From assembly GCA_964389315.1 (NCBI GenBank), contig CAYMDJ010000002.1:1-59633 (forward strand): a stretch of 59,633 nucleotides of DNA, written 5' to 3'. A program made the position numbers and the translations under genes. The notes below the pieces were generated by a model. It was given only the letters and a program-made list of their open reading frames with translations, did no database searches and was not told where the DNA came from. The DNA comes from an uncultured archaeon. GTDB taxonomy: Archaea > Aenigmatarchaeota > Aenigmatarchaeia > QMZP01. Of this stretch, positions 20,118-48,091 are shown piece after piece. Within the stretch, counting starts at the first letter, position 1, and each line of letters starts with the position of its first letter.

Positions 20118-23100
20118 TCAGGCCTTTGAGCTGAGCCTCTTTATCATGCTTATCTCTTCTTTCCTCGTCGCGGGGATTGTTGCAGGACCTGTCGCGGGGG
20201 CGCTTATCTCCACGGGCGCTCCAGAAACCTCTGGGTAGACAATCTTTATCTCCTTCCTTTTCTCCCCGCTCTCCTGAAGGCTTCTCCATGCCTCCAGCTG
20301 GCCTGACATGTAGTCAACCCTGTTCTTGAAGGCATCCATCTCGGAGTCCATTATGTCCTCGTTGGTCTTTATGCGAGTCTCTATCTCGTCCCTGAGGTCG
20401 CTCACCTTTGCCTCCATGTCCTTGCCGTAATCCTTGATGCCACCGAGCCTTGTCCTCAGCTCCGTCACTGTCTCGCTGAGCTCCTTTATGGTATGCTCTG
20501 ATTCAGATAACCTCTTTACAAGTTCCTTCTGTCCCTCTGACATCTTCTTCATGGATTCCAGACCCATCTTCTCTATGCTCTCGCTGAGCTTCTCCTCTAT
20601 CCCGGGCATGCTCGCGAGCTCCCTTCCGAAGTCCTTTATCGCATTCTTTGTCCTTGACTCAAGCTCTCTGGATTCCCTGAGCACCTTGTCAAAATCCCGC
20701 TTTCTCCTCTCCTCTGACAGCTCGATGTCGCCAGCCACCTCTGAAATCTCCTTCTTGGCCTCGGCAAGGACCAGCCTCTTGTGGTCGTCCAGCATGCTCC
20801 TCGTCCTCATCTCCTGGTCCTTTGACAGCGACACGATGTCTGATTCTATCCTGGACATCCTCTCCCTCTCTGCGGATAGCTCTCCCTGAAGGCTTCTTAT
20901 CTCCTTAAGGGACGACTTGCCCTCTTCCTCAAGGCCCTCTATCTTCTCTGATATGTCCGAGAGGGAGGATATCTTTCCTGCCATCTCCTTTATCCTGGCA
21001 GAGTTGCTTCCGAAGACCTTGAGCAGGGAATCCATGACGGCAAGCTTGCTGCCAATCTCGTCTATCTCCCCGGCCGATATGTTCGAGAGGTTCTCCAGGT
21101 TCGCGAGGCCTGATATCCTCTCCTTTATATCGTTAATCTCCTCGAGGCCGGATTCCGTCTTCTTGGTCAGAGCGGAGACGCTGGATGACAATGATTTCTC
21201 CAGGACAGCTATCCTGCTGTTGAGGGTATTCTGTATGTCCTCCTGGGACGCTTTTACCAGGCTCAAATCAGAAGCCGTCCTGTTGATTAGTTCCGTGCTC
21301 TCGTCCAAATCAGAAGAGAGCTTGCTGTCCGTTTCCCTGTTACCGGATTCTATGTCATCAATCCTCTTGCTTATCGAATTCACCGTGCTGATGAATTCCG
21401 ATTCCGTGACAATCCCTCTGCCGAGGCCCTCGCTCATCTTTGAGAGGTGGGAAACCCTCTCCTTCAGGACCTGCACGTCGGCAGTCATGGACTCTGCCCT
21501 TGTCAGGCTCTTAGCGAGGTTGCCTGATACTATTGCCTGGGCCTTGAGCTCGTCATCGAGGGATATCAGATTCTCAGATAGCTTGCCGAGCCTCTTCTCG
21601 TTGCCTGACATGTATGAGTTGATTTTCTTCTCCGCGTCCTTTGTCCTTGCAAGCCATGCCTTTATGTCCTTTGTGTGCAGGCCTGCCTGCTCCTTCCTGG
21701 CTGCGGCTATGTCCAGTGAGAGCTGCTTCGTCCTTTCGTTTATTCCGGACTGGAGGGACTGGAAAGTATCCTTCTGGTCACTGGAGAGCTGCTTCACCCT
21801 CTCGTCAATCTCATTCTGGAGGGATATGCTGAAATCCTTCTGGTCCTGTGAAAGCTGCTTGATTCTCTCGTCAATCTCGTTCTGTAGAGAGAGGTTTATT
21901 TCCTCCTGTTCCCCTGAGAGCTGCTTCACCTTCCTGTCAATCTCAGAGCGCAGGGATGCAAGGATTTCCTTCTGACCTTCAGAAACAGCCTCAACGAACT
22001 TCCTCTGGTCATCTATCTCCTGCCTGATTGAGGACATATCCTGGAAAACCCTGTCAAGACGTGACTCCTTCTTCCTGTCAGTCCCGCCGAAGACCTTCTC
22101 CATCGCCGCTATCCTCTGCCTCTCGTCAGAGAGGCTCTCCTCAACGGACTTGAGCTGCTTTGAGAACATCTGGAAAATCTTTGAGCTTGACTCGATGTCC
22201 GTTATCCTCGCCATGAGGTTTTCAATATTTTCATGCAGTGAAGTGACGTCTTCCCGTTGCTTAACTGCCATTTGCTTAATCCTCTGGCTGATTTCAGAGC
22301 GTGCTGATGAAGAGACGGCCTTCTGCTCGTCAGAAAGTTTTCCGAGGATTTTCCTCTGCTCACCAATCTCCTTGTTGAGTGCCTTGGAATTCGAATCAAT
22401 GACCGTCATCCTTTCCGTAATCTTCTTGATGTCGTTCATCAGACCGGGGAAGGTTTTCGTGTCCGATTCCATCCTTGTAATCCTCGCCATGAGGTTTTCA
22501 ATGCCGTCCATTATTTCCGGGAGCGGCTTGGTTCCCATCTCGAGTGCAATCACCCTTCCCTTGACGTCATCGAGCTCCACCATGGCCTTCGGGAGGAGCT
22601 TTATGTTAGCAATCATCTCCCTTATCTTCTGCACCATGTCCATTGTCTTGGGTATCTGGCTGATCACCGCCTCCATGCCGATAAGCCTCTCCTCAAGATC
22701 ATCAACGGATTTGGTGTTGTCAGAGACATCGGCTACTATGTTCTCAAGTTTTGTCACCCTGTCCCTCATCGAATGTATATTGTCAACGCTCTGCTGGACG
22801 GTCTTCGAGAAGGACTCCAGCCTGACGAGGGTCTTTGAGAATTCCTCTATTTCAGAGCCGTGCTTCCCGACCGCGTCAATGAGCGGCTTGAGAGAGGAGA
22901 CCTTTTCCGAGAGCTTCTTTATCTCAGATTCGTGGAGGGATATTGATTTTATCGGGGCATCCAGGGAAGCGAGCCTCTGTGTTATTGCCTTTATCTCCTT
23001 CTCGTGCTCAGGTAACATACCTATGTCAGCTATCCTGTCCCTTATCCCCGATATCAGCTGCTGGTTCTTTGAGACGTCCGTGACCGCGAGGTCAAGTGCG

Positions 23101-25253
23101 ACCAGCTTCTCCCTGAGGGAGGCGATAATCTTCGCGTTCTCCGAAGCCTGCTTTGAGACCGAATCATAATCAGAAGAAAGGGCCTTGGAGTCAGAGAGCG
23201 TCTGCTGAAGCGCTGTTTCTATGTTATCCATGTCAGACCTCATGCCAGGTATTTCAGAAGCAGAATTCTGTAGGGAGACAATATCCTTCTGCATCCCGTC
23301 AAATCTCTTCTCCTGCGACTTGGAGTAGCCGTCCATCTCCGAAGCGAGGCCTGAAATGCGCTTCATCTCTTCAGAGAGCTTCGAGAGCTGCTCGCTCTTC
23401 TCCTTGTCAATCCTCCTGTCCATCTCAGACCTTATGCTCTTTGATTCCTTGCTGAGCTTTTCGTCAAGAATCTTCGAGAAGCTGTCAACGCTGTCAAGCC
23501 TCGAACGGACCACGTCTATCTCGGCGAGCGCATTCCTCACCTCACCAATCTCCCTGTCTATCCTGTCAAGACGTGACTCCTTCTTCCTGTCAGTCCCGCC
23601 GAAGACCTTCTCCATCGCCGCTATCCTCTGCCTCTCGTCAGAGAGGCTCTCCTCAACGGACTTGAGCTGCTCTGCAAGGGACTGGCTCCGCTCAAAGAGG
23701 ATCTCCTTGGCCTCGTTTATCTTTCCCACCGAATCCTCAACAGAGGATATTCTCTTAGGGACCTCCCTTGTCATCGCGTCAATGTTCCGTGTCCTTTCCC
23801 TGAGATTTTCCAGAACATCCTGGTTGTCTGATATCTGCTTGGAGGCCAGCTCCATCTTCGTCAGCCTCTCCTTCAGTTTCGCTATAGCATCAGCGTTCTC
23901 CTCGAGTGTGTCTATTCCCGATATCTGCTCCCTTATCTTTGATATTGTCTCGGCGTTCGATTTTGCCTGTCCGGTTATGGCCTTCAGGTTGCCGGACATC
24001 CTGCTGTCAATCTCTGCGATTTTCTCGGCTATCACCTTCCTGACGCTCTCCTGAGTCCTGTTGATTATCTTCTCGTCAGAGGCCAGCTCCATTATCTGCT
24101 TCTCTATGCCTGCCCTCTCTGAGGCGAGCCTCTTGTCAAGGGAGAAGAGCCTGCTCTCCGAGTCCTCGAGCCGCTTGTTGAGGTTGGAGAAGAGGTCTGA
24201 GAACTCTGAGCGGTTCACGGAATTCTTGGCGAAACCAGCTAGCATGGAATCTGCCTCTGAGAGCTTCTGCTTGATTATCTTTATCTCGGACGGGGCGTCC
24301 TCGAGCAGCCTGGAAAGCCTTGATAACTCTGAGTCCTGGGATTTCTTGTATCCCCTTATCTCCTCCTCGAGGTTGGATATCCGGTTTATCTCTGTCCTGA
24401 ATTCCATGAGCTGGGCCTTGTTGTCATCGAGCCTCTTCTGGTCAAAGTCCTTCCTTATGGAATCGGCAGCCTTCTGGAGGTCCTTCAGGAGTTCTGACCT
24501 GAGTTCTGCGAGGGAATCTCCCTGGAACCGGGAGAGCTTGCCCAGCTTTGAGTCCAGCGCCTTGGAGAACTCCTCAGCGCTGTCCGCCCTCTTCCTCAGA
24601 AGCTTTATCTCCGCCAGCGTCCCCTCCAGGTCAGCTATATTCTGGCTTATCTTGTAGAAAGCGCTGTCCTGGGTCTTCTTGTATGCACGGAACTCTTCCT
24701 CTATCCCGGCTATCCTCTTTATCTCATTCTTGAACTCTGATATCTGGGACTTGATGTCCTGGACGCGCTTCTTCTCGAAATCATTCTTTATCGAGTCTAT
24801 GTTCCTCTCCAGCTCCCTTATCATCTCCCTCCTCGTCTCTTCGAGGGACTTCGACTGGTCTCGGAGGCTTGAACGGAGAAGGTTTACTGATTCTAGGTCC
24901 TTCTGCATCATGTTAATCTGATTGATTAGAGAGTTTATGACAGACTCGTTCTTATCGCTCCTCTTCTTCTGCGAAGAAATTTCCTTATCAATGTCGTCTA
25001 TCGATCTGAGCTCGACGCCCATCTCAGCGAGCCGCTCCTTTATGGGTTCTACCTGGTTCTTCACGAAATCCATTATCCTCTGGCTCGCCTGCTGGAACGA
25101 TTCCTGCATCCTGTTGAGCCGCTCGGAAAAGGAGTTGGACCTGGTGATGAGCTCTTCCTTCTCCTTCTCGAGTGCGGCTATTATCCTCCTCTGCTGCTCC
25201 TCGTTCTTCTTGAGGCGGAGCACCCCTGCCTCAAGGTCGCTGAGCTCCTTCAT
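20118..25253 (-). CDS. giant cytoplasmic coiled-coil protein (1,711 aa), unknown function
   Basis: E/K/S/L/I/R-rich heptad-like sequence nearly end to end. There is no signal peptide, no TM and no P-loop. It carries internal repeats, including an exact 110-nt duplication. Its start overlaps the stop of the upstream coiled-coil gene (ATGA at 25250-25253). Confidence 0.8.
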   Translation of the reverse strand: MKELSDLEAGVLRLKKNEEQQRRIIAALEKEKEELITRSNSFSERLNRMQESFQQASQRIMDFVKNQVEPIKERLAEMGVELRSIDDIDKEISSQKKRSDKNESVINSLINQINMMQKDLESVNLLRSSLRDQSKSLEETRREMIRELERNIDSIKNDFEKKRVQDIKSQISEFKNEIKRIAGIEEEFRAYKKTQDSAFYKISQNIADLEGTLAEIKLLRKRADSAEEFSKALDSKLGKLSRFQGDSLAELRSELLKDLQKAADSIRKDFDQKRLDDNKAQLMEFRTEINRISNLEEEIRGYKKSQDSELSRLSRLLEDAPSEIKIIKQKLSEADSMLAGFAKNSVNRSEFSDLFSNLNKRLEDSESRLFSLDKRLASERAGIEKQIMELASDEKIINRTQESVRKVIAEKIAEIDSRMSGNLKAITGQAKSNAETISKIREQISGIDTLEENADAIAKLKERLTKMELASKQISDNQDVLENLRERTRNIDAMTREVPKRISSVEDSVGKINEAKEILFERSQSLAEQLKSVEESLSDERQRIAAMEKVFGGTDRKKESRLDRIDREIGEVRNALAEIDVVRSRLDSVDSFSKILDEKLSKESKSIRSEMDRRIDKEKSEQLSKLSEEMKRISGLASEMDGYSKSQEKRFDGMQKDIVSLQNSASEIPGMRSDMDNIETALQQTLSDSKALSSDYDSVSKQASENAKIIASLREKLVALDLAVTDVSKNQQLISGIRDRIADIGMLPEHEKEIKAITQRLASLDAPIKSISLHESEIKKLSEKVSSLKPLIDAVGKHGSEIEEFSKTLVRLESFSKTVQQSVDNIHSMRDRVTKLENIVADVSDNTKSVDDLEERLIGMEAVISQIPKTMDMVQKIREMIANIKLLPKAMVELDDVKGRVIALEMGTKPLPEIMDGIENLMARITRMESDTKTFPGLMNDIKKITERMTVIDSNSKALNKEIGEQRKILGKLSDEQKAVSSSARSEISQRIKQMAVKQREDVTSLHENIENLMARITDIESSSKIFQMFSKQLKSVEESLSDERQRIAAMEKVFGGTDRKKESRLDRVFQDMSSIRQEIDDQRKFVEAVSEGQKEILASLRSEIDRKVKQLSGEQEEINLSLQNEIDERIKQLSQDQKDFSISLQNEIDERVKQLSSDQKDTFQSLQSGINERTKQLSLDIAAARKEQAGLHTKDIKAWLARTKDAEKKINSYMSGNEKRLGKLSENLISLDDELKAQAIVSGNLAKSLTRAESMTADVQVLKERVSHLSKMSEGLGRGIVTESEFISTVNSISKRIDDIESGNRETDSKLSSDLDESTELINRTASDLSLVKASQEDIQNTLNSRIAVLEKSLSSSVSALTKKTESGLEEINDIKERISGLANLENLSNISAGEIDEIGSKLAVMDSLLKVFGSNSARIKEMAGKISSLSDISEKIEGLEEEGKSSLKEIRSLQGELSAERERMSRIESDIVSLSKDQEMRTRSMLDDHKRLVLAEAKKEISEVAGDIELSEERRKRDFDKVLRESRELESRTKNAIKDFGRELASMPGIEEKLSESIEKMGLESMKKMSEGQKELVKRLSESEHTIKELSETVTELRTRLGGIKDYGKDMEAKVSDLRDEIETRIKTNEDIMDSEMDAFKNRVDYMSGQLEAWRSLQESGEKRKEIKIVYPEVSGAPVEISAPATGPATIPATRKEEISMIKRLSSKA
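22050..22159. repeat. 110-bp exact direct repeat, copy A (inside the 1,711-aa coiled-coil gene)
   Basis: I read 22050-22159 as identical to 23562-23671, base for base. In the protein both encode ...QLKSVEESLSDERQRIAAMEKVFGGTDRKKESRLDR.... Confidence 0.85.
23562..23671. repeat. 110-bp exact direct repeat, copy B
   Basis: See copy A. The copies are 1,512 bp apart and in frame (504 codons). Confidence 0.85.
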
Positions 25254-27760
25254 GATGACAGCTCCTTTATTATGCTTCCGACCCTCTCCCTCTGCTCCCT
25301 GACGTCCCTCTCGAGCTGGCGCCTCTCTGCAATGTTCTGCTTGAGGGCCTTCTCGAGCTCCTTCATGTCCAGGTTTATCTTCTCCTCAAGGACGCCATAA
25401 AGAGACCTTATCTCCTTTACCTGCTTGTCTATCATTGATATCTGGCTGACTATCCTCGACATCTGGTCTGAGACCTTCTCACCGCTCGCGTCCATCCTTG
25501 AATCGAATGCCTTGCTTATGTCGTTCAGCTCGTCTGTCCTGTCCTTCAGGAACTTTATGTCCGCCAGCGCTCCCTGAAGCAGAGTAAGGTCGTTCCTGAG
25601 TGCATCGAGTCTTGACTCATGGGATTTGTTGGTTGCCTCGAGCGTCTCCTCAAGCGCGGCGAGCCTCTTGAAGTCTGCCTTTATCTGGTTGAGCTGCTCC
25701 TGCCTGTCAAGAATCCTTTTCTCATCAATGCCCTTCTCCATCTCTTTCAATCTCTTCTCAAGCGATGAGCGCAGCTCGTCGCTTATTACATCGAGCCTCT
25801 GCTTCTGGTATTGTATCATGTCGCTGAACTTCTTCTCGAGCTTCTCGGAAAAGCTCTCGACGTCAGATACCCTCGGGCCAAAGGCCAGGGCCCTTGATAC
25901 GCTGTCCTTCATCTTGCCCATCTCATCATTCAGCTTCTCGACGGATTTGTCCATGACCTTCCTGCCTGCCCTGAGCTCTTCCTCGAGGCTGGCCACCCTC
26001 TTGGTCTCTGACTTGAACTCCTCGAGCTGGTTCTTGGAGTCAATCTCCCTCCTCTTGTCCATCTCCTTCTTTATGTCAGAGACCTCGTTCTTGAGCTCCT
26101 TCTTCAGGGAATCGCCGAGCTTTGAGATGCTCTGCTTCTGCCCCTCAAGGAGCTCATTGAACCTGGCCTCCTGAATCGTCAGCCTCTGCGCCATCGCTGA
26201 AATGTCCTCGCGGTTGGTAGAGAGCTTCTCTGCGAGGCCGCTGATTTCCAGGCCCATTGATTCTGACCTCTGGACAACCATGTTCCTTGCCTCTAGGAAC
26301 TTGTTGATTGCGATGTCCTGGTTGTCAATCCTCTTGGGAAGGGTCTTTGTCTCTGACCATATGGTATTGATGTTATCCCTGGTCCCCTCGTTCAGCTTCA
26401 GCTGCTTCTCAGTGAATCTCTTCAGCCTGTTGACGTCTGCCTGGAGTCCCCTCTCTATCGAGGACACCCTCTTCTCGAGCCAGGCCTTTATGTTCTCCGG
26501 TGCCTCTATGTTCTTTATTGCCTCGTATAATTCGTTCTCTCTCTTGTCAGAGAGCTTCATCCTCTCATCAATCAGCATGTCCCTCTTCTCGAGCTCCGCA
26601 AACCTCGGCTGGATGAGCGAAAGGAAGGTCTTGTGGATGTCCTTGTCAATCTTGTCCATGTCCTTCTTCTGGATTTCCCTGAGGTCCTGGTATATCTTTT
26701 CAGTGACGCTCTCTATCTTCTTCTTGATGTCATCCCTGAGGCCCTTGACACCGTCTGAGAGTCGCTCCTCCTGCTCGTCCATGTCCTTGGAGAGCTGGTC
26801 CTTGTCTGACCTGAGCTCTGCTATGTCCTCCCTGAGCTTCTGGAGGTTCAGGACCTCCTCCTTGAGGTGGTTGAGCCTGACGTTGAAATCATTGACCAGG
26901 TCCCTCATGTCCCTTACCTCGTTCACGGCAGGGTCGAGCTTTGTCTTGAGCTTCTTGCCTACCAAATCCGGTATCACCTGCTCTATTATCTCGTCGCTGG
27001 AGAATATCAGCTTCCTGAGCTTCTGGACGTTGTCAGGCCCGAGCTTCTGGTTCAACTGCTCGTATCTCTCCTCAAGGTCAGGGAACCTCTCGAGTATCTT
27101 TGACTTGTCCTCCAGGTTGGAAACGCGGTAATCCAGCTTCTTGCTGGTGTTGTCAACGTTCCTCGCTATCTCCGATATTGCCTTCTTCAGGTCGAACATC
27201 TGCGACTGGAAATCAACCTCTTCCCCGAACGAGGCCAATTGCCTTCCCGCTGCTCCTCCAGCGGAGGGAACGGGCTGGAGTGCCTGCTGGTTTAATCTTT
27301 CGGTCAGTTCTGTTAATTTCGCTTCCATGTCAGAAAGCTTGCCGAGCTTGCTGAGTTCTTCTGACATCGCTGAAAGCTTTGAATCGACCTTCTTCTTTAT
27401 CATTTCTGATAATTCCTTTTTCATGCCCGATTCATTCTTTGATGAAGAATTCTGCGCAGGTGCCTGGGCTGGCTGGGGATTCGTGCTGGTTTGTTGCGGC
27501 TTTTCCTGGGCAGCAGCCTGGGATGATTTCAGCCCCTCCTCGAGATTTTGCGCGGCCTTGCCGAGGTTTGAAAGCCCTCCGGAATCGTTTTCCTTTCCCT
27601 CCGGCGATTCACGGACTCCCTTGGTCACCTCTTCTATTATGCTCGCGAGATTCCTGTTTTTCTCGAGAAGCTCAAGCTTTTCGCTCTCCAGCTTCTTGAT
27701 GTTGTCATTTTCCTTGTCAAGCTCCTTCTTTACGTTACCGAGCTTCTTTTCACCGGCCAT
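25250..27760 (-). CDS. cytoplasmic coiled-coil protein (836 aa), paralogous modules with the 1,711-aa protein
   Basis: Coiled-coil composition with a Q/P/A-rich linker near the N-terminus (AAQEKPQQTSTNPQPAQAPAQ). It has no TM or signal peptide. It shares ~90-aa modules with the downstream gene (for example IKKEMDKRREIDSKNQLEEFKSETKRVASLEEELRAG). Confidence 0.8.
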   Translation of the reverse strand: MAGEKKLGNVKKELDKENDNIKKLESEKLELLEKNRNLASIIEEVTKGVRESPEGKENDSGGLSNLGKAAQNLEEGLKSSQAAAQEKPQQTSTNPQPAQAPAQNSSSKNESGMKKELSEMIKKKVDSKLSAMSEELSKLGKLSDMEAKLTELTERLNQQALQPVPSAGGAAGRQLASFGEEVDFQSQMFDLKKAISEIARNVDNTSKKLDYRVSNLEDKSKILERFPDLEERYEQLNQKLGPDNVQKLRKLIFSSDEIIEQVIPDLVGKKLKTKLDPAVNEVRDMRDLVNDFNVRLNHLKEEVLNLQKLREDIAELRSDKDQLSKDMDEQEERLSDGVKGLRDDIKKKIESVTEKIYQDLREIQKKDMDKIDKDIHKTFLSLIQPRFAELEKRDMLIDERMKLSDKRENELYEAIKNIEAPENIKAWLEKRVSSIERGLQADVNRLKRFTEKQLKLNEGTRDNINTIWSETKTLPKRIDNQDIAINKFLEARNMVVQRSESMGLEISGLAEKLSTNREDISAMAQRLTIQEARFNELLEGQKQSISKLGDSLKKELKNEVSDIKKEMDKRREIDSKNQLEEFKSETKRVASLEEELRAGRKVMDKSVEKLNDEMGKMKDSVSRALAFGPRVSDVESFSEKLEKKFSDMIQYQKQRLDVISDELRSSLEKRLKEMEKGIDEKRILDRQEQLNQIKADFKRLAALEETLEATNKSHESRLDALRNDLTLLQGALADIKFLKDRTDELNDISKAFDSRMDASGEKVSDQMSRIVSQISMIDKQVKEIRSLYGVLEEKINLDMKELEKALKQNIAERRQLERDVREQRERVGSIIKELSS

Positions 27761-28057
27761 GCTGGTTCATGCCCCCTGGAAACGGTTTTTCCCGGATACT
27801 GCAAATTTTGAGCAAAATGAGAAAGTTTCTTCCGGGCAGGATTTTTCTCCTGGAATTCTCATAGTAAATAATTATAAAGGGGCTATATAAATCAAAAAGG
27901 GCTGTTTTATATATGTTAATACTAGTATGCCGATATTTATTTTTTTAGAAAAAAACGCCCAAAAAAAGATACTGTGTATACGACTTTTTGGGGGGTAAGC
28001 CTCATTTTTCGTTTTTTACGGAAAATTTTATATTACACGCATACAATACTTTATTGC

Positions 28058-28714
28058 ATGATAAAGAAAGAGAAGATAACGGACTACAGGAACTTCTGGC
28101 TCATCTGGCTCAGTTGCGCAGGAAAACCAGACAAGGGAGAGTCTCTATTCAAGATACAGGACGCGTGGAACATAAAGACCAACTATCTCTACCACCATGA
28201 GACCGGTCTCGGAAAGCCATTATACATGCATATGATAAGGAAAAACTACATCCGCAAGCAAAAGACGAAACTCGTCCCGAACTTTGCCTGGATAAACGAG
28301 CACATAAAGGAAATCGTTGGTGAGGGGGTGGGCAATACGTGGTATCCGAGCGTCTTCATCGGCGGGCGGTGGCCGGTTGTCCAGAGTTTCATAGAGAAGA
28401 ACGCGAACGTTCTTTTCAGCATGGAGAACCTAAAAATCCTCTACAAGGAAGATAGGAACATACTTGGCGAGTCCGGACGTCACATCTTTACAGACATTTT
28501 CCTTTACGTAATCTTTTCAAACATGATAGAGTTCTGTAAAAAATACCACGCTGACATTGTATTAAGGATCCTTTCTACCTTCATATCAGTGTTCGCGGAC
28601 AGGGACCTGCTCAATTACATAAGGAAGGTTCACAGCCAGATCGGTGATAACGTACCAGTATTGATATCCAACGAATCAGAGATGAACAGGCTGATGTATC
28701 CATTCAAATGGTAA
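28058..28714 (+). CDS. hypothetical protein (218 aa), orphan, AT-richer than its neighbours
   Basis: ORF 27974-28714. ATG 28058 (MIKKEKITDYRNFW...) is preferred because TTTTATATTA lies ~25 nt upstream. The protein is soluble and W/Y/K/N-rich. No motif recognised. Confidence 0.5.
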   Translation: MIKKEKITDYRNFWLIWLSCAGKPDKGESLFKIQDAWNIKTNYLYHHETGLGKPLYMHMIRKNYIRKQKTKLVPNFAWINEHIKEIVGEGVGNTWYPSVFIGGRWPVVQSFIEKNANVLFSMENLKILYKEDRNILGESGRHIFTDIFLYVIFSNMIEFCKKYHADIVLRILSTFISVFADRDLLNYIRKVHSQIGDNVPVLISNESEMNRLMYPFKW

Positions 28715-28765
28715 CCCGCTTACGGACGCCGGCGGCTTGGTTAAATCAGTGCAGTCGCAAGCGGG
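28715..28765 (+). repeat. hairpin-repeat copy 0 (GCTTRC ... GYAAGC family)
   Basis: CCCGCTTAC-(33 nt)-GCAAGCGGG starts immediately after the stop codon at 28712-28714. 8 of 9 stem positions pair. Confidence 0.5.
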
Positions 28766-29008
28766 TGAGCAACAATCAAATTATTCTAAAAAGCTCAACC
28801 AAGAAACGAACCCTTTTACTGCTCATTGCTTCGCCAGGCAACTGCGGCGAATGATGGTTGGTGACAAAAGCGTTCACGGAAAAAACAGGTGTAAATTCTA
28901 CGTGTTTGGCTTAAGCCTTTGTGGAAGCGAGTGTCTGCTTCCCGCATTGGTTATGTATTGAAAGAGCGGGCACTTTAGATCCGGTAAAGGCTTATTTGCG
29001 TGTTGCTC

Positions 29009-29059
29009 CTCGGCTTGCGACTAAAACAACATGGCAAGCGGTAGCGTCTGTAAGCTGAG
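29009..29059 (+). repeat. hairpin-repeat copy 1
   Basis: CTCGGCTTGCGAC-...-GTAGCGTCTGTAAGCTGAG forms a 10-bp stem with two G:U-type pairs. An internal GCAAGC (29034-29039) offers an alternative partner for GCTTGC. Confidence 0.55.
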
Positions 29060-29096
29060 AAGTAGCCTATTTATCCTCAAAGGTCTTCTGGTTGCT

Positions 29097-29149
29097 TATC
29101 AGCTTGCGACTGGACCAATGGGGCAGGCGGCAGCGTCTGTAAGCTGATA
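29097..29149 (+). repeat. hairpin-repeat copy 2
   Basis: TATCAGCTTGCGAC-...-GCAGCGTCTGTAAGCTGATA forms an 11-bp stem. The outer base pairs differ from copies 1 and 3 but stay complementary. It ends at the TATA-like box of the minD-like gene. Confidence 0.55.
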
Positions 29150-29195
29150 TTTATAAAGCTAAAGCCTGAATATAGAGTATCTGGGCCTGAAGGTG
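29147..29195 (+). promoter_or_regulatory. TATA-like box (ATATTTATAAAG, 29147-29158) and SD (AGGTG, 29191-29195) of the minD-like gene
   Basis: An AT-rich box lies ~43 nt upstream and a purine-rich GGTG motif lies 5 nt upstream of ATG 29201. Confidence 0.45.
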
Positions 29196-29200
29196 TGGAA

Positions 29201-29974
29201 ATGACCAGGATAATAGGCATAGTTTCAGGGAAGGGTGGGGTTGGAAAGACTACCGTGGCTATCAATCTGGCAACTTCCCTTGCGAAGAAATACAAGAAGG
29301 ACGTCATAATAGTTGACGGCAACGTGACGACCTCCCACCTCGGCCTTTACCTGGGGATGTACTATTATCCCATATCACTCAACCACGTCCTCTCCGGAGA
29401 CGTAGTGATAGACAAGGCCATGTATGACTACAGCATTCCCGGGGTGAGGATAATACCCGCCTCCTTATCGCTGGATGACCTCAAGGGAATGGACGTTTCT
29501 GACATGAAGAAGCATGTCAAGGAGCTGTTCGGCAAGGCTGATTTTGTCATACTCGATGGCGCGCCGGGATTCGGAAGGGAGGCAATGGCAACCATCCGCG
29601 CCTCCGATGAGATACTCTTCGTTATGACGCCCTTCGTCCCTCCCCTGATGGACGTCATAAAGTGCTACCAGGTCGCGGAGGAGCTCGGTGTCAGGTCCCT
29701 GGGCGTCGTCCTGAACATGACCGGGGAAGGGAGGCACGAGCTCGGAAAGCAGGAGGTAGAGCAATTGATAGAGCTTCCCGTGATATCAATGATACCGAGG
29801 GACAAGGAGGTCCTCAGGAGCCTCTCTGCAAAGCTTCCTGTCACGGACCTCAACCCCAATACCAAATCGAGCAGGGAGATTGACAGGCTTGCAGCATACA
29901 TAGCAGGTGAATACTACACCCCGCCGGGAATAGCTTCAAGGCTCTCCGGTTTGTTCAGAAGGTCAAAGGCCTGA
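29201..29974 (+). CDS. minD: MinD/ParA-family P-loop ATPase (archaeal MinD-like)
   Basis: Deviant Walker A SGKGGVGKTT, Walker B FVILDGAPG, and a C-terminal basic amphipathic tail (IASRLSGLFRRSKA) like a MinD membrane-targeting helix. AGGTG at 29191-29195 lies 5 nt before ATG 29201. GTG 29195 is the alternative start. Confidence 0.9.
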   Translation: MTRIIGIVSGKGGVGKTTVAINLATSLAKKYKKDVIIVDGNVTTSHLGLYLGMYYYPISLNHVLSGDVVIDKAMYDYSIPGVRIIPASLSLDDLKGMDVSDMKKHVKELFGKADFVILDGAPGFGREAMATIRASDEILFVMTPFVPPLMDVIKCYQVAEELGVRSLGVVLNMTGEGRHELGKQEVEQLIELPVISMIPRDKEVLRSLSAKLPVTDLNPNTKSSREIDRLAAYIAGEYYTPPGIASRLSGLFRRSKA

Positions 29975-30015
29975 TATCATTAGCAGAATGGATTTCAATA
30001 GTTTTCTGGTTGCTC

Positions 30016-30053
30016 CTCGGCTTGCATAAGGCGGAAGCCTATCGTAAGCCGAG
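30016..30053 (+). repeat. hairpin-repeat copy 3 (short form with GGAA-capped inner stem)
   Basis: CTCGGCTTGC-ATA-AGGC-GGAA-GCCT-ATC-GTAAGCCGAG. It shares the 5' flank TTCTGGTTGCT with copy 2. Confidence 0.55.
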
Positions 30054-30123
30054 AATAGTTTCTTATATCACGAAAACCATATTAATTAATAGTCGCTGTA
30101 ATGGAAATGTAGTGCTGGTTGGC

Positions 30124-30660: not shown

Positions 30661-30722
30661 GTCTCGTTTGGGAGATGATTGGTGGCAGGGAGAAGTCATG
30701 GTGTTGATATGGGGGATAGGGA

Positions 30723-33968: not shown

Positions 33969-34347
33969 CGAGGTCCTGATTGTCAAAGGGTTTTGTGATG
34001 TAGTCAGAAATCATCAGTTTCTTGAGAATCCTGTAATTAATCTCCTTTGATTTGAGGATGGTAATGAAGACTATCTTCATTTTCCTGGTCTTGGAATTTT
34101 CCCTTATCTTCCTCGCAACGTCAGTTCCTTTCATCCCGGGCATCATTATGTCAAGGACGAGGAGGTCCGGCTTCTCCTTCTCCAGCATGTCCAGGGCCTC
34201 CCTTCCATTGGTTGCAGTGACTATATCAAAACCCCTTGAAACGAGCAAATCCCTTATCAGAACTAACAGATTCTCTTCATCATCGACGACCATTATCTTT
34301 TTCTTCTTGGGCATGTCATATCCCGGGTGCGGATACAGTGATGTCAT
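33937..34347 (-). CDS. stand-alone response-regulator receiver (CheY-like)
   Basis: KIMVVDDEE...DLLVLDIMMPGMKG...YITKPF, with no output domain. The ATG at 34345-34347 overlaps the upstream receiver stop (ATGA). The alternative ATG at 34312-34314 (MPKKKKIMVVDD) would give 125 aa. The 3' end overlaps the convergent kinase gene by 32 bp. Confidence 0.85.
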   Translation of the reverse strand: MTSLYPHPGYDMPKKKKIMVVDDEENLLVLIRDLLVSRGFDIVTATNGREALDMLEKEKPDLLVLDIMMPGMKGTDVARKIRENSKTRKMKIVFITILKSKEINYRILKKLMISDYITKPFDNQDLVRRIEWAVSK

Positions 34348-40388: not shown

Positions 40389-43300
40389 CTACTTCAGGGC
40401 ATCCCTTATCTTCTTGTCAATGTCTCCAATCTTTTCCTCGCTCCTTTTCTTCATGCTCTCATAAGCCTCCTTTGATATTATTCCTGACTTATACTGGTTC
40501 TCCAGGAGCCTCAACATTCTCTGGTTTTTTGCCTTCTCTGTTCTCATTGTATCCACGTCGCTGCTCGGCTTGACCGCACCTGCCACCTGCCTTGCCTCGG
40601 ACAGCCTCCCCCTGAGAAGAATCTTCAGGTTCTTGGTCATCCTCCTCATGAAGATTACCAGGACTGCTATGACCGCTGCAAACACTATGATGAGTATGAC
40701 CCACCAGGGCAGGAGGCCGCGCGAGAGTATGTCATCCAGGAGGTCCTCTGCCTCCCTTATGAGCTGCCACGCATTGTAGACCGCATCGAGCGCGGCATCA
40801 TAAAGCTCCTTCTGCAGGTAGTTCTCAGCGAGCTCTATCTCGTTCTCTATGTCCTTTATCAGGTCCTCCACGGGCGAGACTTCATACCCCGATGCCTTCG
40901 CATTCTCTGTCCTGGTCTTGAGCTCCCTCAGCTTGGCCTTGAGCCTCACCAGCTCGAAGTCTATGAGCTCCTTCCTGGAGGTGAAGATAAAGAGTGTGAA
41001 TACCTCGCTGTCATCGGACTGGTTGGAGGTCGCGGTTATCATTACCTCGTGCTGGCCGGATTCTATCCCGAATGGGATGAGTATCTTCATCGTGAAGGTT
41101 GCTTCATCCCCTGCTGCCAGGGTTCCGATGTTCCTCGGTTCGATGATGAACCAGTTTTCTTCTGTGGAGCGCGCGGTTAGCTGGACGTTGGTGGCAGGAG
41201 AATCTCCGGTGTTCTTCACTACGACGTTGACGTACCTTATCACCCCAACCTCAACACCGACCTCCCTGTCATACTCTGTTATGTTCAGCCTGGCCTGTCC
41301 GCCCCCTCCGGGACCTGCCTCTTCGGGTGCGCCGCCCTCATCGCCTGACGGGGGCGGGGCAGGGGCCTCCCCTATGACGTCAAAGGTCTCGTTGGCCGTG
41401 GCATAGAGGTTGTTGATGCTGTTGTATGTCACCTTTACGTTAAGGGTGTAGGTCCCCGGCGGCTGGCTCGTGAATATGTAGGCGCTGACAGAGGGGTCAG
41501 TGCTCGCATCAAAAGTCTTGTTCTCTCCGGCACCTATGTTCGCTGAGAAATGCTGGTAGTCCCATGTCTGGCCCCCTCCTGATACCCAGTATTCTATCAG
41601 GACGTCAAGGTTGTCAACGTCGCCCTTGTTCTCAACGTAAAGCTCGAAGTTGAGGATGTCCCCTGGCTCGACCTCCTTGTTTAGTATGTTGACTCCGACA
41701 TCGTAGGGCCCTCCCAATGAGACTCTTATGTAATCATAAGCGACGGTCTGATACCCTCCGATGGAAGCGTTGAGTGAGACTTCATAAATCCCGACCGGCG
41801 CAAGGGGTGGCATGGCATAATTGTAGGTATAGACGCCAGTCGATTCCTTTGTCATGCTCGCCATTGTTGTGCTGAAATAAGGATTGTTCGCGGGGTTCAG
41901 GACATTGAGGCTTATGCTGTCAGGGTCTGTCAGCATGCCAGAGCTGTCAGTGAACCACATCACGAACTTCATGATGCTGTTCTGGTACCATAGAGGATAG
42001 ATTCTCATGTCAGCATGTATCCCGTAGCTTGGCGGGTGGTCGACCATGGTGAAGGTGTAGTTCTGGGTGCTGTTCACGAAGAAACCGACGCTGCTTTCAT
42101 AGTATGTGGAGTTGACGATGACCGTGTAGTTCCCTGCCGGATAACCGTAGGTGGGAAAGTCTATATATATCCCCCCGTAATCGTTCCTTATGAAACCGTC
42201 GCTCTCTGTCAGGTATGACTTGTTGAAGAATGTCTCGTTGCCAGGATTGATTATCACGACATCAACGGTGACATTGCCTATGTTCTGCTCGCCTGACGAA
42301 TCCTCTGCCCTGTAATACACAGAGCCCTGGTAGCCCTGGTTGCTGTACTCGTCGCTCAGGGTGAACATCATCGGGCTCAGCTTCGTGTATACATAGAAGG
42401 TGTCGCTTCCTGTCTCGTTCTCTCCCAGATCATCCTCTGCATAGACCCAGGCGGTGTAGTTCCCGGTGTAGGTGGTGTTGCCCCATGTTGAAGGATAGTA
42501 TGCATACCAGCACGAGGTGCTGCCAGGCCCTGAGCCGGTGCAACCCTGCCAGTAAAGCCTCGTCATCGGGACCGTGTCGTTGGTCCCGTCCGGCATGGTA
42601 ACGGTGGCGTTAACGGGCATCAGTATGGGGCGGTCGGACTGCGCCGTGACATTGGAATATATGAGGACGCTTCCCAGCTGTTCTGTGTAATCTGGTATTA
42701 CCTCGACGTCCACGAGGGGCTTTATGTAGGGGCTCAGTGTGATTTTCACGTCGATTTCATCAGGCTCTGCGGAAAGGTTTGTCGCATTTATCGTGTAATT
42801 CGCTGTCCATGTGGACTGTCCTGCTATACCGCTAACGTTGTAGTAGAACGTCAGCTTGTATTCATCATCCGAATCTATTGCGAAGCTCGTGGAGCTGACG
42901 TTGGTGTGGTTTACCTCTGCGGGGGTGACGTTGAAACCAATGAGCACGTTTCCTGTATTGTTTATCAGGACGATGCAGGCAACCCCCACGTCGGGACTCT
43001 GGGAATGCTCGCAATAGGTTTCGTTAACATACCAGCTGCCGTTCACAGGGACTGTCAGGCTGACGTTGAGGGAGAAGTTCTCGGCATTGTCCGAGGTTAT
43101 GTTGAGCGTCCCGTTGTAGGTTCCCGGCGCATATGCGAACGGGATGGTGGCGTTTAGAAGAATCTCCTGGGACTGGCCTGTGAAGAGGTCGTGGGGTCCC
43201 TCTGAGGAAAGGGTTGCTGATAGGCTCTCGAGGCCTGTCATGTTGAGGGTTACGTTGTAGACAATATCGTTTCCTGCAGAGAGGATGGTAACGTTGCCGA

Positions 43301-46300
43301 AGCTCCCCGAGGTCCCGTGCTCTAGCGAGCCCGTGATGTTTGTCCTGTCAACCTCCAGGGTAACGTTGGGGGTGACCGTGATGTTTACGATGCTCCAGTT
43401 GAACACGGTCCCTATGTCAATCTCCTCCCAGCTCACGGTGACGTTTATGGTGTGGTTTCCTGCTGGCGTCCCGTTCATGACAGTGAAGTTGTAAGTGACG
43501 TTGCACGAAGAGCTCACGGATATGTTGCCGCAGTCATAGGACGTCCCGTTGGTCGCATTGAAGTAGTTGAGGTTCATGGAGAGGTTTATCTCTGTGTCAA
43601 AGGCTGTCACAGTCCCTATGTTAGTGGTGTTGACAGAGAGGTTGAAGGAATCGCTGGTATACCAGTTTACGATGTCCGTGGTGAAGTTCTCGGGCGTAAC
43701 GTTGATTGAGACGTTTGTTCCTGACACTATAACAGTCAGGTTTATTATGTGGAAGCCGTAGTTGGATGCCGATACGTTGAGGGTTCCGTTGTAGGTTCCT
43801 GGTGTCTGGGAAGAAGAGACGTTCACCGTAACTGTGACGTCCTGGTCTGTGCCCGGGTTTATGAAGGATATCGGGCCCGGGGGGTTGAATGTGAACTGGA
43901 AGTCGTCCAGCCCTGTCACGGTGAAGTTGACGTCATCAATCCTGTAGTTTCCGGTCGAGTTCACGTTTATCGTCCCCATCTGCTTCTCGAATCCGGGCCC
44001 CACCCTCACCGAGAGGTTGTCCGCGTCAACGAGCATTATGGGATTCTGCGCTATCGTGACGTTGAAGAGCGTGTAGTTATAGTCAGTGGAGTCGTCGGGG
44101 TTGGTCCAGTCTATCGTTATGTTGAATTCATAGGTCTCGTTTGTTGAGGTTGCAAGGGCCGTTATGTTGAAGTACCTGACACAGTTGAGGTCTATGAGGA
44201 CGTCATTGCAGGAATAGAAGGTCTCGTTCGATGAGAAATTCTGGGGGACCGTCACCGTCATGTTCGTGCCATATGTTGTTCCGTTCCCTATGTTGCTCAT
44301 CGTTACCGTGAGGATGAAGCTTTCGTTGTCATACCAGGTAACGTTGGTGAGGACCTTGGAGAGCGGACTGGTGATTACAGAGGCATTGGTTATCGGTGCC
44401 TCTACGGCAAAGTTGTCGTAGACCGTCCTGTTGTTGCCGTCCTTTGTGGCAGTGCAGTTCAGGTAGTAGAGACCGAGTTCGCTGGGAGCTGTGAAGTTTA
44501 TGCTGTAGCTTCCGTCCATGTTATCCGTTATGTTGTCAACGTTCGTCTTGTCCCCGGGATTGTCATTGTGATAATAAGTGCAGTTGACATCCTCTGCGTT
44601 TGAGATGTTGGTATCCTGCCTGTAGTTCTTGAGCCACAGGGTTGCATTGACCTCCCTGTCTGGCAGGCCGCTTGCGGTGGATTCATTAATCACGAGGCTC
44701 GCATAGAGCTGGGCTGTCACGTTGAATGTGTGGTAGGACTCGTTGAGAATGTAGCTGTCATTGTTGAAAATCCTTGCGGTCAGGTTCCATTCCCCCTCCG
44801 CAGAGTCGTTCGGGAGGATATAGATGTTGGACCAGACGTTGTCCCCTGCGACCTGGTCACCGTGGCCTGAATCACCGTCATCATAAAGGATGACCGTCAG
44901 GTCGTCGGCTGTAGAGGGCGTCCCCATGTCAAGTGTCGCATTGGTGTGGTTAGTGAGGTTCCACCCGTCAACCGTGATATTGACCCATAGCAGGACGGTC
45001 TCGTTCCTGTTATATACAGTGTAGTTCGCTTGTGGGTAGGATTCTATGACCCACTTCTCTGCTGCCGAGACCGCCACGTCAATTGGTGTCAGAATCCCGT
45101 CCCTGACGTCATAGACGATGTCCGGGGCACGGGTGCTGTGACCTGATATGAAGATTGACTTCAGCCAAAGGAAGGAATCGGGTGGGAGATTCACTGAGCT
45201 GAGGTTGATACCCACATAGTCGAGATTGCTCTCGTTGTCAACACGGAAGTCAGGGATGCTCTCGTTCTCGAGGATTATCCCGAGCTCGTGACCGGGGTTT
45301 GTTGTCGAGTATACCCTGAGGAAGGATGCGGGATCTGTCTTGTTCTGGTCAAATATCCCGGGCGTGTCGTATGCCAGGCTCGCATCAAACCTCGGGGCTC
45401 CCAGCTCTGCGCTCCTGTTAACGGGCTGGGTTCCTGTGTTCGTCACGTTGAACTCGAGCCTGTACCACCGGATGTTAGGGTAGAAGAAATACCTCTTGAC
45501 TGTGCTGGTCTCGTTCGTCTCGTTTGAAGGTTCGTTCCAGTATATCTCTTCACCTTGCTGCGTGACCGTTATCCTGACCGGGCCCGTGGTGAAAGTGACA
45601 TTGCCATTCATATACCAGGTAAAATTATGGCTGCCGTTAGTGAACTTCAGATACTCCCTTGTCCTCTGGTTTCCGGTGCTGTATATGAAGTTCTCCTCCT
45701 CCCAGACGATGTCATATATCCTGTAGAGGCCCGACGTGTTCTCACCGCCGTCTGTATCGAAATAGAACAGGTAGTTGGTGTTGTTTATCGTGAATGCCTC
45801 ACCGTCCCAGGTATAGCTCATGTTGTAGCCGAGCTCTGATGGGTTCCATGTCCTCTCCTCCTTCTGACCGTTCTCGACGGTGTCGAAGTAGAGGTAGAAG
45901 AACCTGCTGTTGCTGTTGTTGGAGAGCATCGTTCCGTTCAGTATGAACACCACATCGCCTGTCGCTGATTCTGATGCATCATAGTTCCCGTCAGGGTCGA
46001 ACTGGACAGGGAGCTCGTGGAGGACAGAGCCGTCAGAGCCGTTGTATTCAACCAGCCTTGCGGAGAGGTTGTCAAAGGTTCCGGGAACTGACATGTTCTC
46101 AAGGAGATGGGTGAAGTTCATCTGGTATTCTACCGGCCAGTCCGTCCTGTTAATGGCGCTGTGGTTTACCTCGAACATTATCCTGTAGTGCCAGGAGGAG
46201 TTCCACCAGACATCATCATAGTTCTCAGACCTGGTAAAGCTGTTGCTGAGGATAAACCCTGCCAACACGATTGCCAGTATAACTACCAGACCAATCCTTT

Positions 46301-46307
46301 TCTTCAT
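40389..46307 (-). CDS. giant surface protein (1,972 aa): N-terminal signal/anchor, sequon-dense beta-rich array, P/G linker, CARDB-like domains, helical stalk, TM, SHOCT-like cytoplasmic tail
   Basis: MKKRIGLVVILAIVLAGFILSNS at the N-terminus, with hundreds of residues of N-x-S/T-rich beta-type sequence. CARDB-type motifs are EVEPGDILNFELYVENKGDVDN and YVNVVVKNTGDSPATNVQL. The linker is APAPPPSGDEGGAPEEAGPGGGG, the stalk is ...LVRLKAKLRELKTRTENAK..., and the TM is LLPWWVILIIVFAAVIAVLVIF. The tail ends ...LENQYKSGIISKEAYESMKKRSEEKI.... The start directly follows the upstream stop (TAGATG at 46305-46310). Confidence 0.85.
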   Translation of the reverse strand: MKKRIGLVVILAIVLAGFILSNSFTRSENYDDVWWNSSWHYRIMFEVNHSAINRTDWPVEYQMNFTHLLENMSVPGTFDNLSARLVEYNGSDGSVLHELPVQFDPDGNYDASESATGDVVFILNGTMLSNNSNSRFFYLYFDTVENGQKEERTWNPSELGYNMSYTWDGEAFTINNTNYLFYFDTDGGENTSGLYRIYDIVWEEENFIYSTGNQRTREYLKFTNGSHNFTWYMNGNVTFTTGPVRITVTQQGEEIYWNEPSNETNETSTVKRYFFYPNIRWYRLEFNVTNTGTQPVNRSAELGAPRFDASLAYDTPGIFDQNKTDPASFLRVYSTTNPGHELGIILENESIPDFRVDNESNLDYVGINLSSVNLPPDSFLWLKSIFISGHSTRAPDIVYDVRDGILTPIDVAVSAAEKWVIESYPQANYTVYNRNETVLLWVNITVDGWNLTNHTNATLDMGTPSTADDLTVILYDDGDSGHGDQVAGDNVWSNIYILPNDSAEGEWNLTARIFNNDSYILNESYHTFNVTAQLYASLVINESTASGLPDREVNATLWLKNYRQDTNISNAEDVNCTYYHNDNPGDKTNVDNITDNMDGSYSINFTAPSELGLYYLNCTATKDGNNRTVYDNFAVEAPITNASVITSPLSKVLTNVTWYDNESFILTVTMSNIGNGTTYGTNMTVTVPQNFSSNETFYSCNDVLIDLNCVRYFNITALATSTNETYEFNITIDWTNPDDSTDYNYTLFNVTIAQNPIMLVDADNLSVRVGPGFEKQMGTINVNSTGNYRIDDVNFTVTGLDDFQFTFNPPGPISFINPGTDQDVTVTVNVSSSQTPGTYNGTLNVSASNYGFHIINLTVIVSGTNVSINVTPENFTTDIVNWYTSDSFNLSVNTTNIGTVTAFDTEINLSMNLNYFNATNGTSYDCGNISVSSSCNVTYNFTVMNGTPAGNHTINVTVSWEEIDIGTVFNWSIVNITVTPNVTLEVDRTNITGSLEHGTSGSFGNVTILSAGNDIVYNVTLNMTGLESLSATLSSEGPHDLFTGQSQEILLNATIPFAYAPGTYNGTLNITSDNAENFSLNVSLTVPVNGSWYVNETYCEHSQSPDVGVACIVLINNTGNVLIGFNVTPAEVNHTNVSSTSFAIDSDDEYKLTFYYNVSGIAGQSTWTANYTINATNLSAEPDEIDVKITLSPYIKPLVDVEVIPDYTEQLGSVLIYSNVTAQSDRPILMPVNATVTMPDGTNDTVPMTRLYWQGCTGSGPGSTSCWYAYYPSTWGNTTYTGNYTAWVYAEDDLGENETGSDTFYVYTKLSPMMFTLSDEYSNQGYQGSVYYRAEDSSGEQNIGNVTVDVVIINPGNETFFNKSYLTESDGFIRNDYGGIYIDFPTYGYPAGNYTVIVNSTYYESSVGFFVNSTQNYTFTMVDHPPSYGIHADMRIYPLWYQNSIMKFVMWFTDSSGMLTDPDSISLNVLNPANNPYFSTTMASMTKESTGVYTYNYAMPPLAPVGIYEVSLNASIGGYQTVAYDYIRVSLGGPYDVGVNILNKEVEPGDILNFELYVENKGDVDNLDVLIEYWVSGGGQTWDYQHFSANIGAGENKTFDASTDPSVSAYIFTSQPPGTYTLNVKVTYNSINNLYATANETFDVIGEAPAPPPSGDEGGAPEEAGPGGGGQARLNITEYDREVGVEVGVIRYVNVVVKNTGDSPATNVQLTARSTEENWFIIEPRNIGTLAAGDEATFTMKILIPFGIESGQHEVMITATSNQSDDSEVFTLFIFTSRKELIDFELVRLKAKLRELKTRTENAKASGYEVSPVEDLIKDIENEIELAENYLQKELYDAALDAVYNAWQLIREAEDLLDDILSRGLLPWWVILIIVFAAVIAVLVIFMRRMTKNLKILLRGRLSEARQVAGAVKPSSDVDTMRTEKAKNQRMLRLLENQYKSGIISKEAYESMKKRSEEKIGDIDKKIRDALK

Positions 46308-48086: not shown

Positions 48087-48091
48087 TCAAA

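Follow-up and report, generated by a model that had tools for sequence, protein, structure and literature searches.

What do two adjacent genes for giant, almost purely coiled-coil proteins contribute to a DPANN archaeon? The question is raised by a 59,633-nucleotide (nt) stretch of DNA from an uncultured member of the Aenigmatarchaeota (contig CAYMDJ010000002.1 of assembly GCA_964389315.1; the whole of this stretch is referred to as the window). Its minus strand carries cc836 (25250..27760; 836 amino acids (aa)), defined from its open reading frame (ORF), an alignment and an AlphaFold2 (AF2) model, followed by cc1711 (20118..25253), defined from its ORF and translation and encoding a headless coiled coil of 1,711 aa. 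Cells of DPANN archaea are tiny, few of these organisms have been cultured, and their internal organisation is almost uncharted. An initial annotation had seen in the pair a possible cytoskeletal filament, molecular ruler or tether; it covered these two genes and overlooked the larger cluster to which they belong, with its giant envelope proteins and a conserved protein of 218 aa (p218) encoded between the pair and MinD. The answer that we favour, a tentative one that falls somewhat short of probable, is that the two proteins are a co-assembling cytoplasmic scaffold working with a MinD-type ATPase and an envelope complex encoded beside them.

The two reading frames overlap by ATGA at 25250..25253 (minus strand), the cc836 stop sharing these letters with the cc1711 start, as the initial annotation had reported and as ORF calls and the sequence at the junction bear out. 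An AAGGAG lies 8 nt upstream of the cc1711 start, within the codons for K-E in the C-terminal motif of cc836, and throughout the clade of the window these codons read AAGGAG, 8-12 nt before the downstream gene. Lineages with AAAGAG instead retain the same C-terminal peptide; the motif is thus constrained at the protein level. At related loci the ortholog of cc1711 (hereafter ccLong) always follows a cc836-like gene, with a gap of -4 to +54 nt; most loci have either the -4 overlap or a gap of -1 to +4. From this arrangement, cc836 and cc1711 are predicted to be produced together through translational coupling. Compared with the orthologs at L005 (loci are numbered with an L), differences at the first, second and third codon positions number 78/40/238 for cc836 and 179/125/559 for cc1711, and this third-position bias marks both as real coding genes under purifying selection. 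In the same comparison they evolve faster than p218 and MinD.

Both proteins are rich in E, K, L, S, I, R and D, with 1-2% Pro. Their hydrophobic residues recur with a periodicity that peaks at 3.47 residues in cc1711 and 3.53 in cc836, the local power at this period being three to four times that of shuffled sequence in each protein. A score for heptad positions a and d exceeded the 95th percentile of shuffles in 58% of the 28-aa windows of cc1711 and 43% of those of cc836, against 2% for MinD and 8% for p218 as controls, and 90-95% of the residues of the pair fall in at least one significant heptad window. Periodicity, heptad score and shuffle controls thus bear out the E/K/R/L/I/S heptads noted at the outset. 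A hendecad or 51-residue periodicity of the Scy/FilP type was rejected, because a period of 3.5 has twice the power of one of 3.67. No 19-aa window of either protein has transmembrane (TM)-like hydropathy (maximum 1.15), and a search for signal peptides in cc836 and cc1711 found none. There is no Walker A motif in cc836, and the sole regular-expression match in cc1711 (GLEEEGKS, aa 1440) lies inside heptads. A monomeric AF2 model of cc836, built from 22 homologs, has 711 of 836 residues helical (85%), with helices at aa 268-419, 421-472, 481-623, 634-755 and 763-835 and disorder confined to aa 43-112 and 156-185; its confidence is low (predicted local distance difference test (pLDDT) 63.5, predicted template-modelling score (pTM) 0.21), as expected of an isolated rod. 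In cc836 helix therefore prevails over disorder at this level of confidence, and we read the pair as canonical left-handed heptad coiled coils, predicted to be cytoplasmic and headless.

None of the known families examined (SMC, Rad50, tape-measure proteins, Pfam, NCBIfam) claims the pair. In Pfam no cut-off was passed (DUF7310 26.3 bits against 40, Baculo_PEP_C 20 against 38, NPV_P10 24.2 against 29.8, Fib_alpha 17.6 against 29.9), and a Foldseek search with the cc836 model gave nothing usable or specific. Sub-threshold similarities recall degenerate SMC, Rad50 or archaea-specific SMC-related (ASRP) proteins that organise or repair DNA: these profiles are matched in NCBIfam (best scores: SMC_prok_B 89.8 bits against a cut-off of 567, Rad50 77 against 700, ASRP 76 against 300), as are the LmuB and JetC profiles of PADLOC and an SbcC-like profile in PHROGs, and JGI and source names label relatives 'chromosome segregation ATPase'. 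Such an origin is nonetheless highly improbable. The NCBIfam scores lie between 14 and 90 bits, where the cut-offs are 300-1,087, the NCBIfam and PADLOC alignments cover only the coiled-coil arms, Walker A/B motifs, head, hinge and zinc hook are all missing, and a profile search of PDB sequences returned generic coiled coils only. Together with hydropathy and the Walker A search, these arm-only alignments uphold the earlier statement that the proteins lack a signal peptide, TM segment, P-loop and SMC/Rad50-type head. The automated 'chromosome segregation ATPase' labels are hereby corrected for what are headless coiled-coil proteins.

The same searches bear on a second alternative, namely an extracellular fibre or surface-layer stalk resembling tetrabrachion, or a virus-derived tape-measure protein. 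The great length of the proteins and the giant surface proteins of the cluster would suit it. Yet, besides lacking export signals, the pair shows no match to a tail or tape-measure family in PHROGs (cc1711 matches a family of unknown function apart from the SbcC-like arm, cc836 none). It stands among housekeeping and cluster genes with no viral context and with a G+C content like that of its surroundings, and it is kept at one chromosomal position across the phylum. We consider this account improbable in the extreme.

The family itself is small. For cc836, 22 word-indexed matches were found, and a profile search run exhaustively against 1.84 billion representative proteins gave 39 members at E <= 1e-30 and 67 at E <= 1e-10. 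Those with names are called either 'hypothetical protein' of Aenigmarchaeota or, by automation, 'chromosome segregation protein', and the named members are confined to Aenigmatarchaeota. Our literature searches found no description of the family of the pair or of its gene cluster.

The two proteins are also related to each other. The initial annotation had recognised a shared module of about 90 aa; the homology lies far beyond chance, and the period needed correction. An alignment of cc836 residues 538-812 with cc1711 residues 130-414 spans 292 aa with 27% identity and scores 89.7 bits (E = 6e-22); among 30 shuffles of cc1711 the top score was 26 bits. The four peptides originally quoted lie at aa 155 and 266 of cc1711 and at aa 563 and 678 of cc836, and the repeat has a period of 111-115 aa. 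A module hidden Markov model (HMM) delimits two tandem copies of ~111 aa in cc1711 (aa 133-244 and 244-352; 24198..24857, minus strand) and diverged copies at aa 535-604 and 598-685, while the two homologous tandem copies of ~111 aa in cc836 occupy aa 541-652 and 652-762 (25475..26140, minus strand). The AF2 helices of this cc836 region break at aa 624-633 and 756-762. A spectrin-like reading (three-helix units of ~106 aa, as in EzrA) was rejected, each ~111-aa module falling within one continuous helix of 120-143 residues in the low-confidence AF2 model. Collinear similarity extends to cc836 458-523 and cc1711 482-547, which surround a common xPKR hinge motif, and the correspondence between the C-terminal half of cc836 and the N-terminal part of ccLong recurs in L001, L002, L005, L006, L011 and L016. 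Module homology and repeat copies together indicate that cc836 and cc1711 are paralogs grown by module duplication. At L008 (4412-9804), the adjacent cc836-like and ccLong proteins are 72% identical over 444 aa, which points to a very recent module exchange or duplication between both genes.

Repetition within cc1711 continues on a smaller scale. An intragenic duplication of 113 nt, 99% identical (22050..22162 and 23562..23674, minus strand, 1,512 nt apart), encodes the 36-aa motif QLKSVEESLSDERQRIAAMEKVFGGTDRKKESRLDR twice, at aa 1033-1068 and 529-564. Both motif copies are identical in this genome and are present but diverged in orthologs, with RIAAxEK..D..KE.RLD as the residues invariant in the family. 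Given this divergence in relatives, recent gene conversion or an assembly effect (collapse) is likely here. A 66-nt (22-aa) tandem repeat in three to four copies follows at 21718..21965 (minus strand).

Length is fluid, and this bears on the proposal of a molecular ruler, by which one dimension of the cell, or the length of some structure, would be fixed. Fully extended, cc1711 would measure ~250 nm (1,711 x 0.15 nm), and ~250 nm is within the size range of DPANN cells. Orthologs of ccLong, however, vary from ~640 to 1,913 aa (cc836-like proteins from ~590 to 1,267 aa), even close relatives differ by modules gained or lost, cc1711 lacks 68 aa that are present in its nearest relatives, and the AF2 model contains hinges. 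A ruler is therefore very unlikely.

Beyond the generic coiled coil, the ends of the proteins and one internal region are conserved. In cc836, a Lys-rich N-terminal helix and disordered P/Q/A/S-rich linkers precede a conserved core and the long coiled-coil helices. The core (aa ~170-430; 26471..27253, minus strand) is non-repetitive, has invariant or near-invariant alignment columns, and contains the motifs LASFGEEVDFQ (predicted to be disordered), KLGPxNVQKLRKLIFSSDEI, IPxLV and IEAPENxKxW. The C-terminal motif ..IIKELSS of cc836 is conserved, all cc836-like proteins ending in ..LLKEL[KR], and most ccLong proteins end with an LLKE/LLK motif that resembles it. At the other end, the N-terminus of cc1711 is conserved as MKELxELExGxxRLKK, and most long partners begin MxELxELExGxxxLKK. 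This conservation suggests that the termini of both proteins could be docking sites. The SKA ending of cc1711, in contrast, had been taken as a weak hint of an element shared with MinD, and this part of the annotation does not hold: although cc1711 and MinD of the window do both end in SKA, the cc1711 ending is otherwise found, as ...SKT, only in the two closest relatives (L005 and L006), and MinD has other C-terminal endings elsewhere.

What does connect the pair to MinD is synteny across the phylum. With p218 as a tracer, 52 loci were collected in species-representative genomes; nearly all named records among them are Aenigmatarchaeota metagenome-assembled genomes, and among them are a 1.1-Mb contig and two records, of 742 kb and 1.05 Mb, that bear the title 'chromosome'. 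Window proteins were compared with the ORFs of all loci by phmmer, and all neighbours were then clustered. Genes for p218, MinD, cc836 and ccLong are adjacent in ~40 loci, in two arrangements. The commonest is the co-directional order G3795, G592, G1972, p218, MinD, cc836, ccLong; in the clade of the window (L001, L010, L015, L016, L024), p218-MinD alone is inverted in place. Flanking homologs of G1972 were found in 34 loci, of G592 in 20 and of G3795 in 18, the remaining loci being cut by contig ends. The cluster spans ~28 kb, or ~3% of genomes of ~0.7-1.1 Mb (an estimate from the three near-complete genome records), and its cost and its conservation across the sampled members of the phylum imply a central cellular role.

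The ATPase (29195..29974, plus strand; likely start ATG at 29201) belongs to the archaeal MinD type: it scores 203.7 bits with TIGR01969 against a cut-off of 201.75, matches ParA/CbiA in Pfam, and has the deviant Walker A motif GKGGVGKT at aa 12. It directly follows p218 in 45 loci. Its C-terminal amphipathic basic tail ..GIASRLSGLFRRSKA, with equivalent F/L-rich basic tails in more than 40 loci, is a predicted membrane-targeting helix. The spacer between p218 and MinD (28715-29194) is 480 bp long in the window, compared with 30-100 bp in most loci, and holds an insert of ~350 bp that is missing from the closest relatives L005 and L006. This insert has a 57-nt direct repeat (29002-29058/29091-29147, 81% identical) with inverted partial copies at 28749-28781 and may be a small mobile element; it has no Rfam match.

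On the envelope side, two giant membrane proteins and G592 are encoded on the minus strand. G1972 (40389..46307; ~1,970 aa), whose homologs beside p218-MinD have 1,956-2,113 aa, comprises an N-terminal signal anchor, ~1,840 extracellular aa with NPCBM_assoc/MG2 matches, a TM segment at aa 1869-1887 and a cytoplasmic tail of 85 aa. G3795 (48100..59633; the ORF is open at the window end) exceeds 3,800 aa. Its extracellular part is longer than 3,390 aa and is followed by a single TM segment at ~aa 3398-3416, then by a HerA/FtsK-type P-loop domain in the cytoplasm (GSTGAGKT; Pfam DUF87 36 bits against 23.2 and HerA_C 35 against 22, likewise in L019, L035 and L016). Such a fusion of a giant extracellular protein to a HerA-type ATPase is architecturally unusual. 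G592 (46308..48086; ~590 aa), between them, is cytoplasmic, highly charged and helical or disordered, partly of low complexity, with a C-terminal SHOCT-like motif; a BLAST comparison gave no homology to the coiled-coil pair. Over 45 aa the G1972 tail and the G592 C-terminus are 47% identical, and the motif LLExEYKxG(I/L)ISxxAYxxLKKRN occurs in both (40389-40650 and 46308-46450) at every examined locus. The G3795-G592-G1972 operon, conserved across Aenigmatarchaeota, stands next to p218-MinD in the window (40389-59633, minus strand) and in L016, L019, L022, L024 and L026-L048.

Taken together, these elements lead us to propose the following scheme. The cc836 and cc1711 proteins would assemble together beneath the membrane as a scaffold in the form of a segmented rod or filament, and this scaffold would organise or anchor the cytoplasmic side of an envelope complex, putatively made of the two giant membrane proteins (one with the HerA/FtsK-type ATPase) and G592. 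The MinD ATPase, predicted to bind the membrane, would position or remodel the assembly. The layout of cc836, with its Lys-rich N-terminus, disordered linker and coiled coil, may recall scaffolds that activate MinD/ParA ATPases, such as PomX.

Several observations weigh against this scaffold scheme. Gene order, as read from the sequences, is the sole link of the pair to MinD and the envelope proteins. The AF2 model of cc836 is a low-confidence monomer, uninformative on oligomeric state, and the paralogy of cc836 and ccLong is detectable only in the clade of the window. Likeness to PomX is weak evidence, as charged N-termini are common in coiled-coil proteins; that of cc836 has 7 Lys but also 6 acidic residues among 25, before the disordered linkers and coiled coil, and its motif IKKExxKE is conserved only in the clade of the window. 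At L043, L047 and L054, p218-MinD occurs without an adjacent pair, and at L056 it has beside it only a 273-aa coiled-coil ORF. An insert of 10 kb separates MinD from G1972 in the window. In co-directional loci a spacer of ~230-440 nt lies between MinD and the cc836-like gene, so that the pair would be its own transcription unit, and a common operator for the cc836-like gene is unsupported, the palindromic box described below being present in only 5 of 25 such MinD-cc836 spacers.

An independent transcription unit would equally suit a stand-alone cytoskeleton resembling intermediate filaments (compare crescentin and FilP), giving mechanical support or shape to the cell, in which case the genes would be clustered through co-expression or streamlining of the genome rather than through joint function. 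The long heptad rods, segmented by short hinges, the paralogy of the two proteins and their rapid sequence evolution while the heptad pattern persists all fit this rival. Such an account must, however, face the adjacency of p218-MinD and the pair, which outlasts a local inversion and a divergence of p218 to ~43% identity, a persistence rare for unrelated genes; the non-coiled core and the terminal motifs of cc836 also suggest specific partners. We regard a stand-alone cytoskeleton as a serious but unlikely possibility.

The other element linked to MinD, p218 (28058..28714, plus strand), is a conserved orphan with a Lys-rich N-terminus (MxKKxK), a winged-helix-like N-domain and a helical C-domain. 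Its family of 201 clusters keeps a constant length, and all source names that bear a taxon are Aenigmatarchaeota; searches of Pfam and of PDB sequences gave no match. The AF2 model is confident (pLDDT 88.5), with an H-H-H-beta-beta N-domain followed by the helical domain, and its top Foldseek matches are PadR/MarR/IclR regulators, none of them significant (E >= 0.14, TM score <= 0.29). A palindromic box with the family consensus TAGTATATTTATACTATT lies halfway between the divergently oriented cc836 and p218 genes (27909..27926, strand not assigned). It is the sole match scoring at least 8 in the 59.6-kb window, with a weaker proximal copy at 28029-28046. Two to three copies of the box precede p218 in nearly all loci (L001-L053), the distal one at a conserved ~-130 to -175 nt. 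Of the matches in 807 kb of loci, 86 fall between -300 and +100 relative to the p218 start, against 6 elsewhere. As the position weight matrix (from a Gibbs sampler) was trained on these same upstream regions, the informative part of this count is the near-absence of boxes elsewhere. One clade conserves the block AACAAACAnCnCCGAGCCTnTGG between the boxes. A structured leader or small RNA between the boxes was dropped, RNAalifold giving three pairs and no covariation. We regard p218 as a probable DNA-binding protein, and it would probably bind the boxes upstream of its own gene.

If p218 bound the boxes as a centromere-like site, MinD could be a ParA-type motor and the pair an anchoring matrix, and the cluster would then serve chromosome segregation or anchoring (compare Scy/ParA, PopZ/TipN and PomXY). 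The winged-helix-like N-domain and its regulator-like top matches, the position of p218 directly upstream of MinD, the concentration of boxes there and the precedent of ParA and Scy are in keeping with this idea, as is the MxKKxK terminus, many ParA partners having such a Lys-rich N-terminus (PMC7993993). On the other hand, every p218 fold match has E > 0.1, the boxes overlap TATA-like promoter sequence, and the matrix was trained on the regions in which it finds them. The ATPase is moreover of the MinD type with a membrane-targeting helix rather than a DNA-binding ParA, and the conserved giant membrane proteins are left unexplained. Homologs of p218 with ~42% identity occur without adjacent MinD or coiled-coil genes at L049-L053, on contigs labelled Bathyarchaeota, Nanohalarchaeota or Aenigmatarchaeota; p218 can thus exist alone, which fits an ordinary autoregulating transcription factor. 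We regard a role in segregation as no less serious, but no more likely, than the stand-alone cytoskeleton, and give it first place among the rivals.

Some local features of the cluster deserve mention. The block between MinD and G1972 (30010-40341), restricted to this genome and close relatives, encodes small KaiC/ArlH-like proteins at either end (30010-30660 and 39733-40341), a histidine kinase of 7TM-Cache-HAMP architecture (30723-33968) and a response regulator (33937-34347). A full KaiC-like ATPase (34652-35674) is also encoded there, as is the LamG surface protein G1349 (35687-39736), whose C-terminus carries a looser SHOCT-like motif. In the clade with the inverted arrangement, 8 loci have a small KaiC-like gene after MinD. 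At L043 (CP070804.1, the 742-kb record titled 'chromosome'; 9989-13044), where p218-MinD has no adjacent coiled-coil pair, only a 141-aa remnant matching G1972 lies upstream; downstream of MinD, the opposite strand carries Rad50-/Mre11-like ORFs. Scans for Rfam families and tRNAs across the window found nothing.

Returning to the scaffold that we favour, its cluster supplies named candidates for an archaeal coiled-coil cytoskeleton and for the cargo of an archaeal MinD. A bolder and rather unlikely extension is that the pair could be the cytoskeletal core of a MinD-positioned envelope organelle, docking the tails of the two giant adhesin-like proteins, one of them with a HerA/FtsK-type translocase, and used for host contact or for passing DNA or protein to or from the host. 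If true, this organelle would be a convergent archaeal counterpart of the attachment organelle of Mycoplasma. In the Mycoplasma terminal organelle (HMW2), a genome-reduced, host-associated cell likewise builds a core of mostly coiled-coil proteins of ~1,800 aa beneath giant surface adhesins. That system is bacterial and non-homologous, to our knowledge has no MinD or HerA-type ATPase, and a role of the archaeal cluster in host contact is pure conjecture.

Other known systems share individual traits with the pair. SMC, Rad50 and the archaea-specific SMC-related proteins have long arms capable of antiparallel pairing, to which the weak profile matches correspond, whereas the archaeal pair lacks ABC ATPase heads, hinge and hook and scores far under the cut-offs. 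The adjacent and paralogous scy and filP genes of Streptomyces encode proteins built on an unusual 51-residue repeat. Scy, a long coiled coil, interacts with ParA (PMC3718342), and FilP forms intermediate-filament-like assemblies (PMC6599971). The resemblance lies in very long coiled coils, one of them ParA-interacting; the archaeal proteins differ in their canonical 3.5 periodicity, show no homology and accompany a MinD- rather than a ParA-type ATPase.

Among archaea, accounts of Haloferax volcanii describe MinD4 as positioning the archaellum and chemosensory arrays and not the division ring (bioRxiv 10.1101/2020.04.03.021790; PMC11588486). MinD4 offers a parallel for an archaeal MinD-family ATPase tied to large envelope-associated machines, in a different phylum and with no mention in these sources of a coiled-coil pair or giant membrane proteins. 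The archaeal Dip oscillator was set aside as an unrelated GTPase system.

The closest parallel in organisation is the PomX/PomY/PomZ system of Myxococcus xanthus, in which coiled-coil scaffolds activate, and are moved by, a ParA/MinD ATPase; PomX consists of a charged N-terminal peptide that activates PomZ, an Ala/Pro-rich linker and a filament-forming coiled coil (PMC7993993). Here, too, a ParA/MinD-family ATPase gene lies beside those of two coiled-coil-rich scaffolds, and cc836 may resemble PomX in its Lys-rich N-terminus, P/Q/A/S-rich linkers and long coiled coils. The two systems share no sequence homology. PomZ acts on the nucleoid, in contrast to the archaeal MinD with its predicted membrane-targeting helix, and the archaeal proteins are two to four times longer, paralogous and apparently translationally coupled, in a cluster that adds giant membrane proteins and a winged-helix-like protein. 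From these comparisons, the pair may represent a new form of long coiled-coil scaffold associated with ParA/MinD ATPases, and the cluster as a whole, we conjecture, is perhaps more distinctive still.

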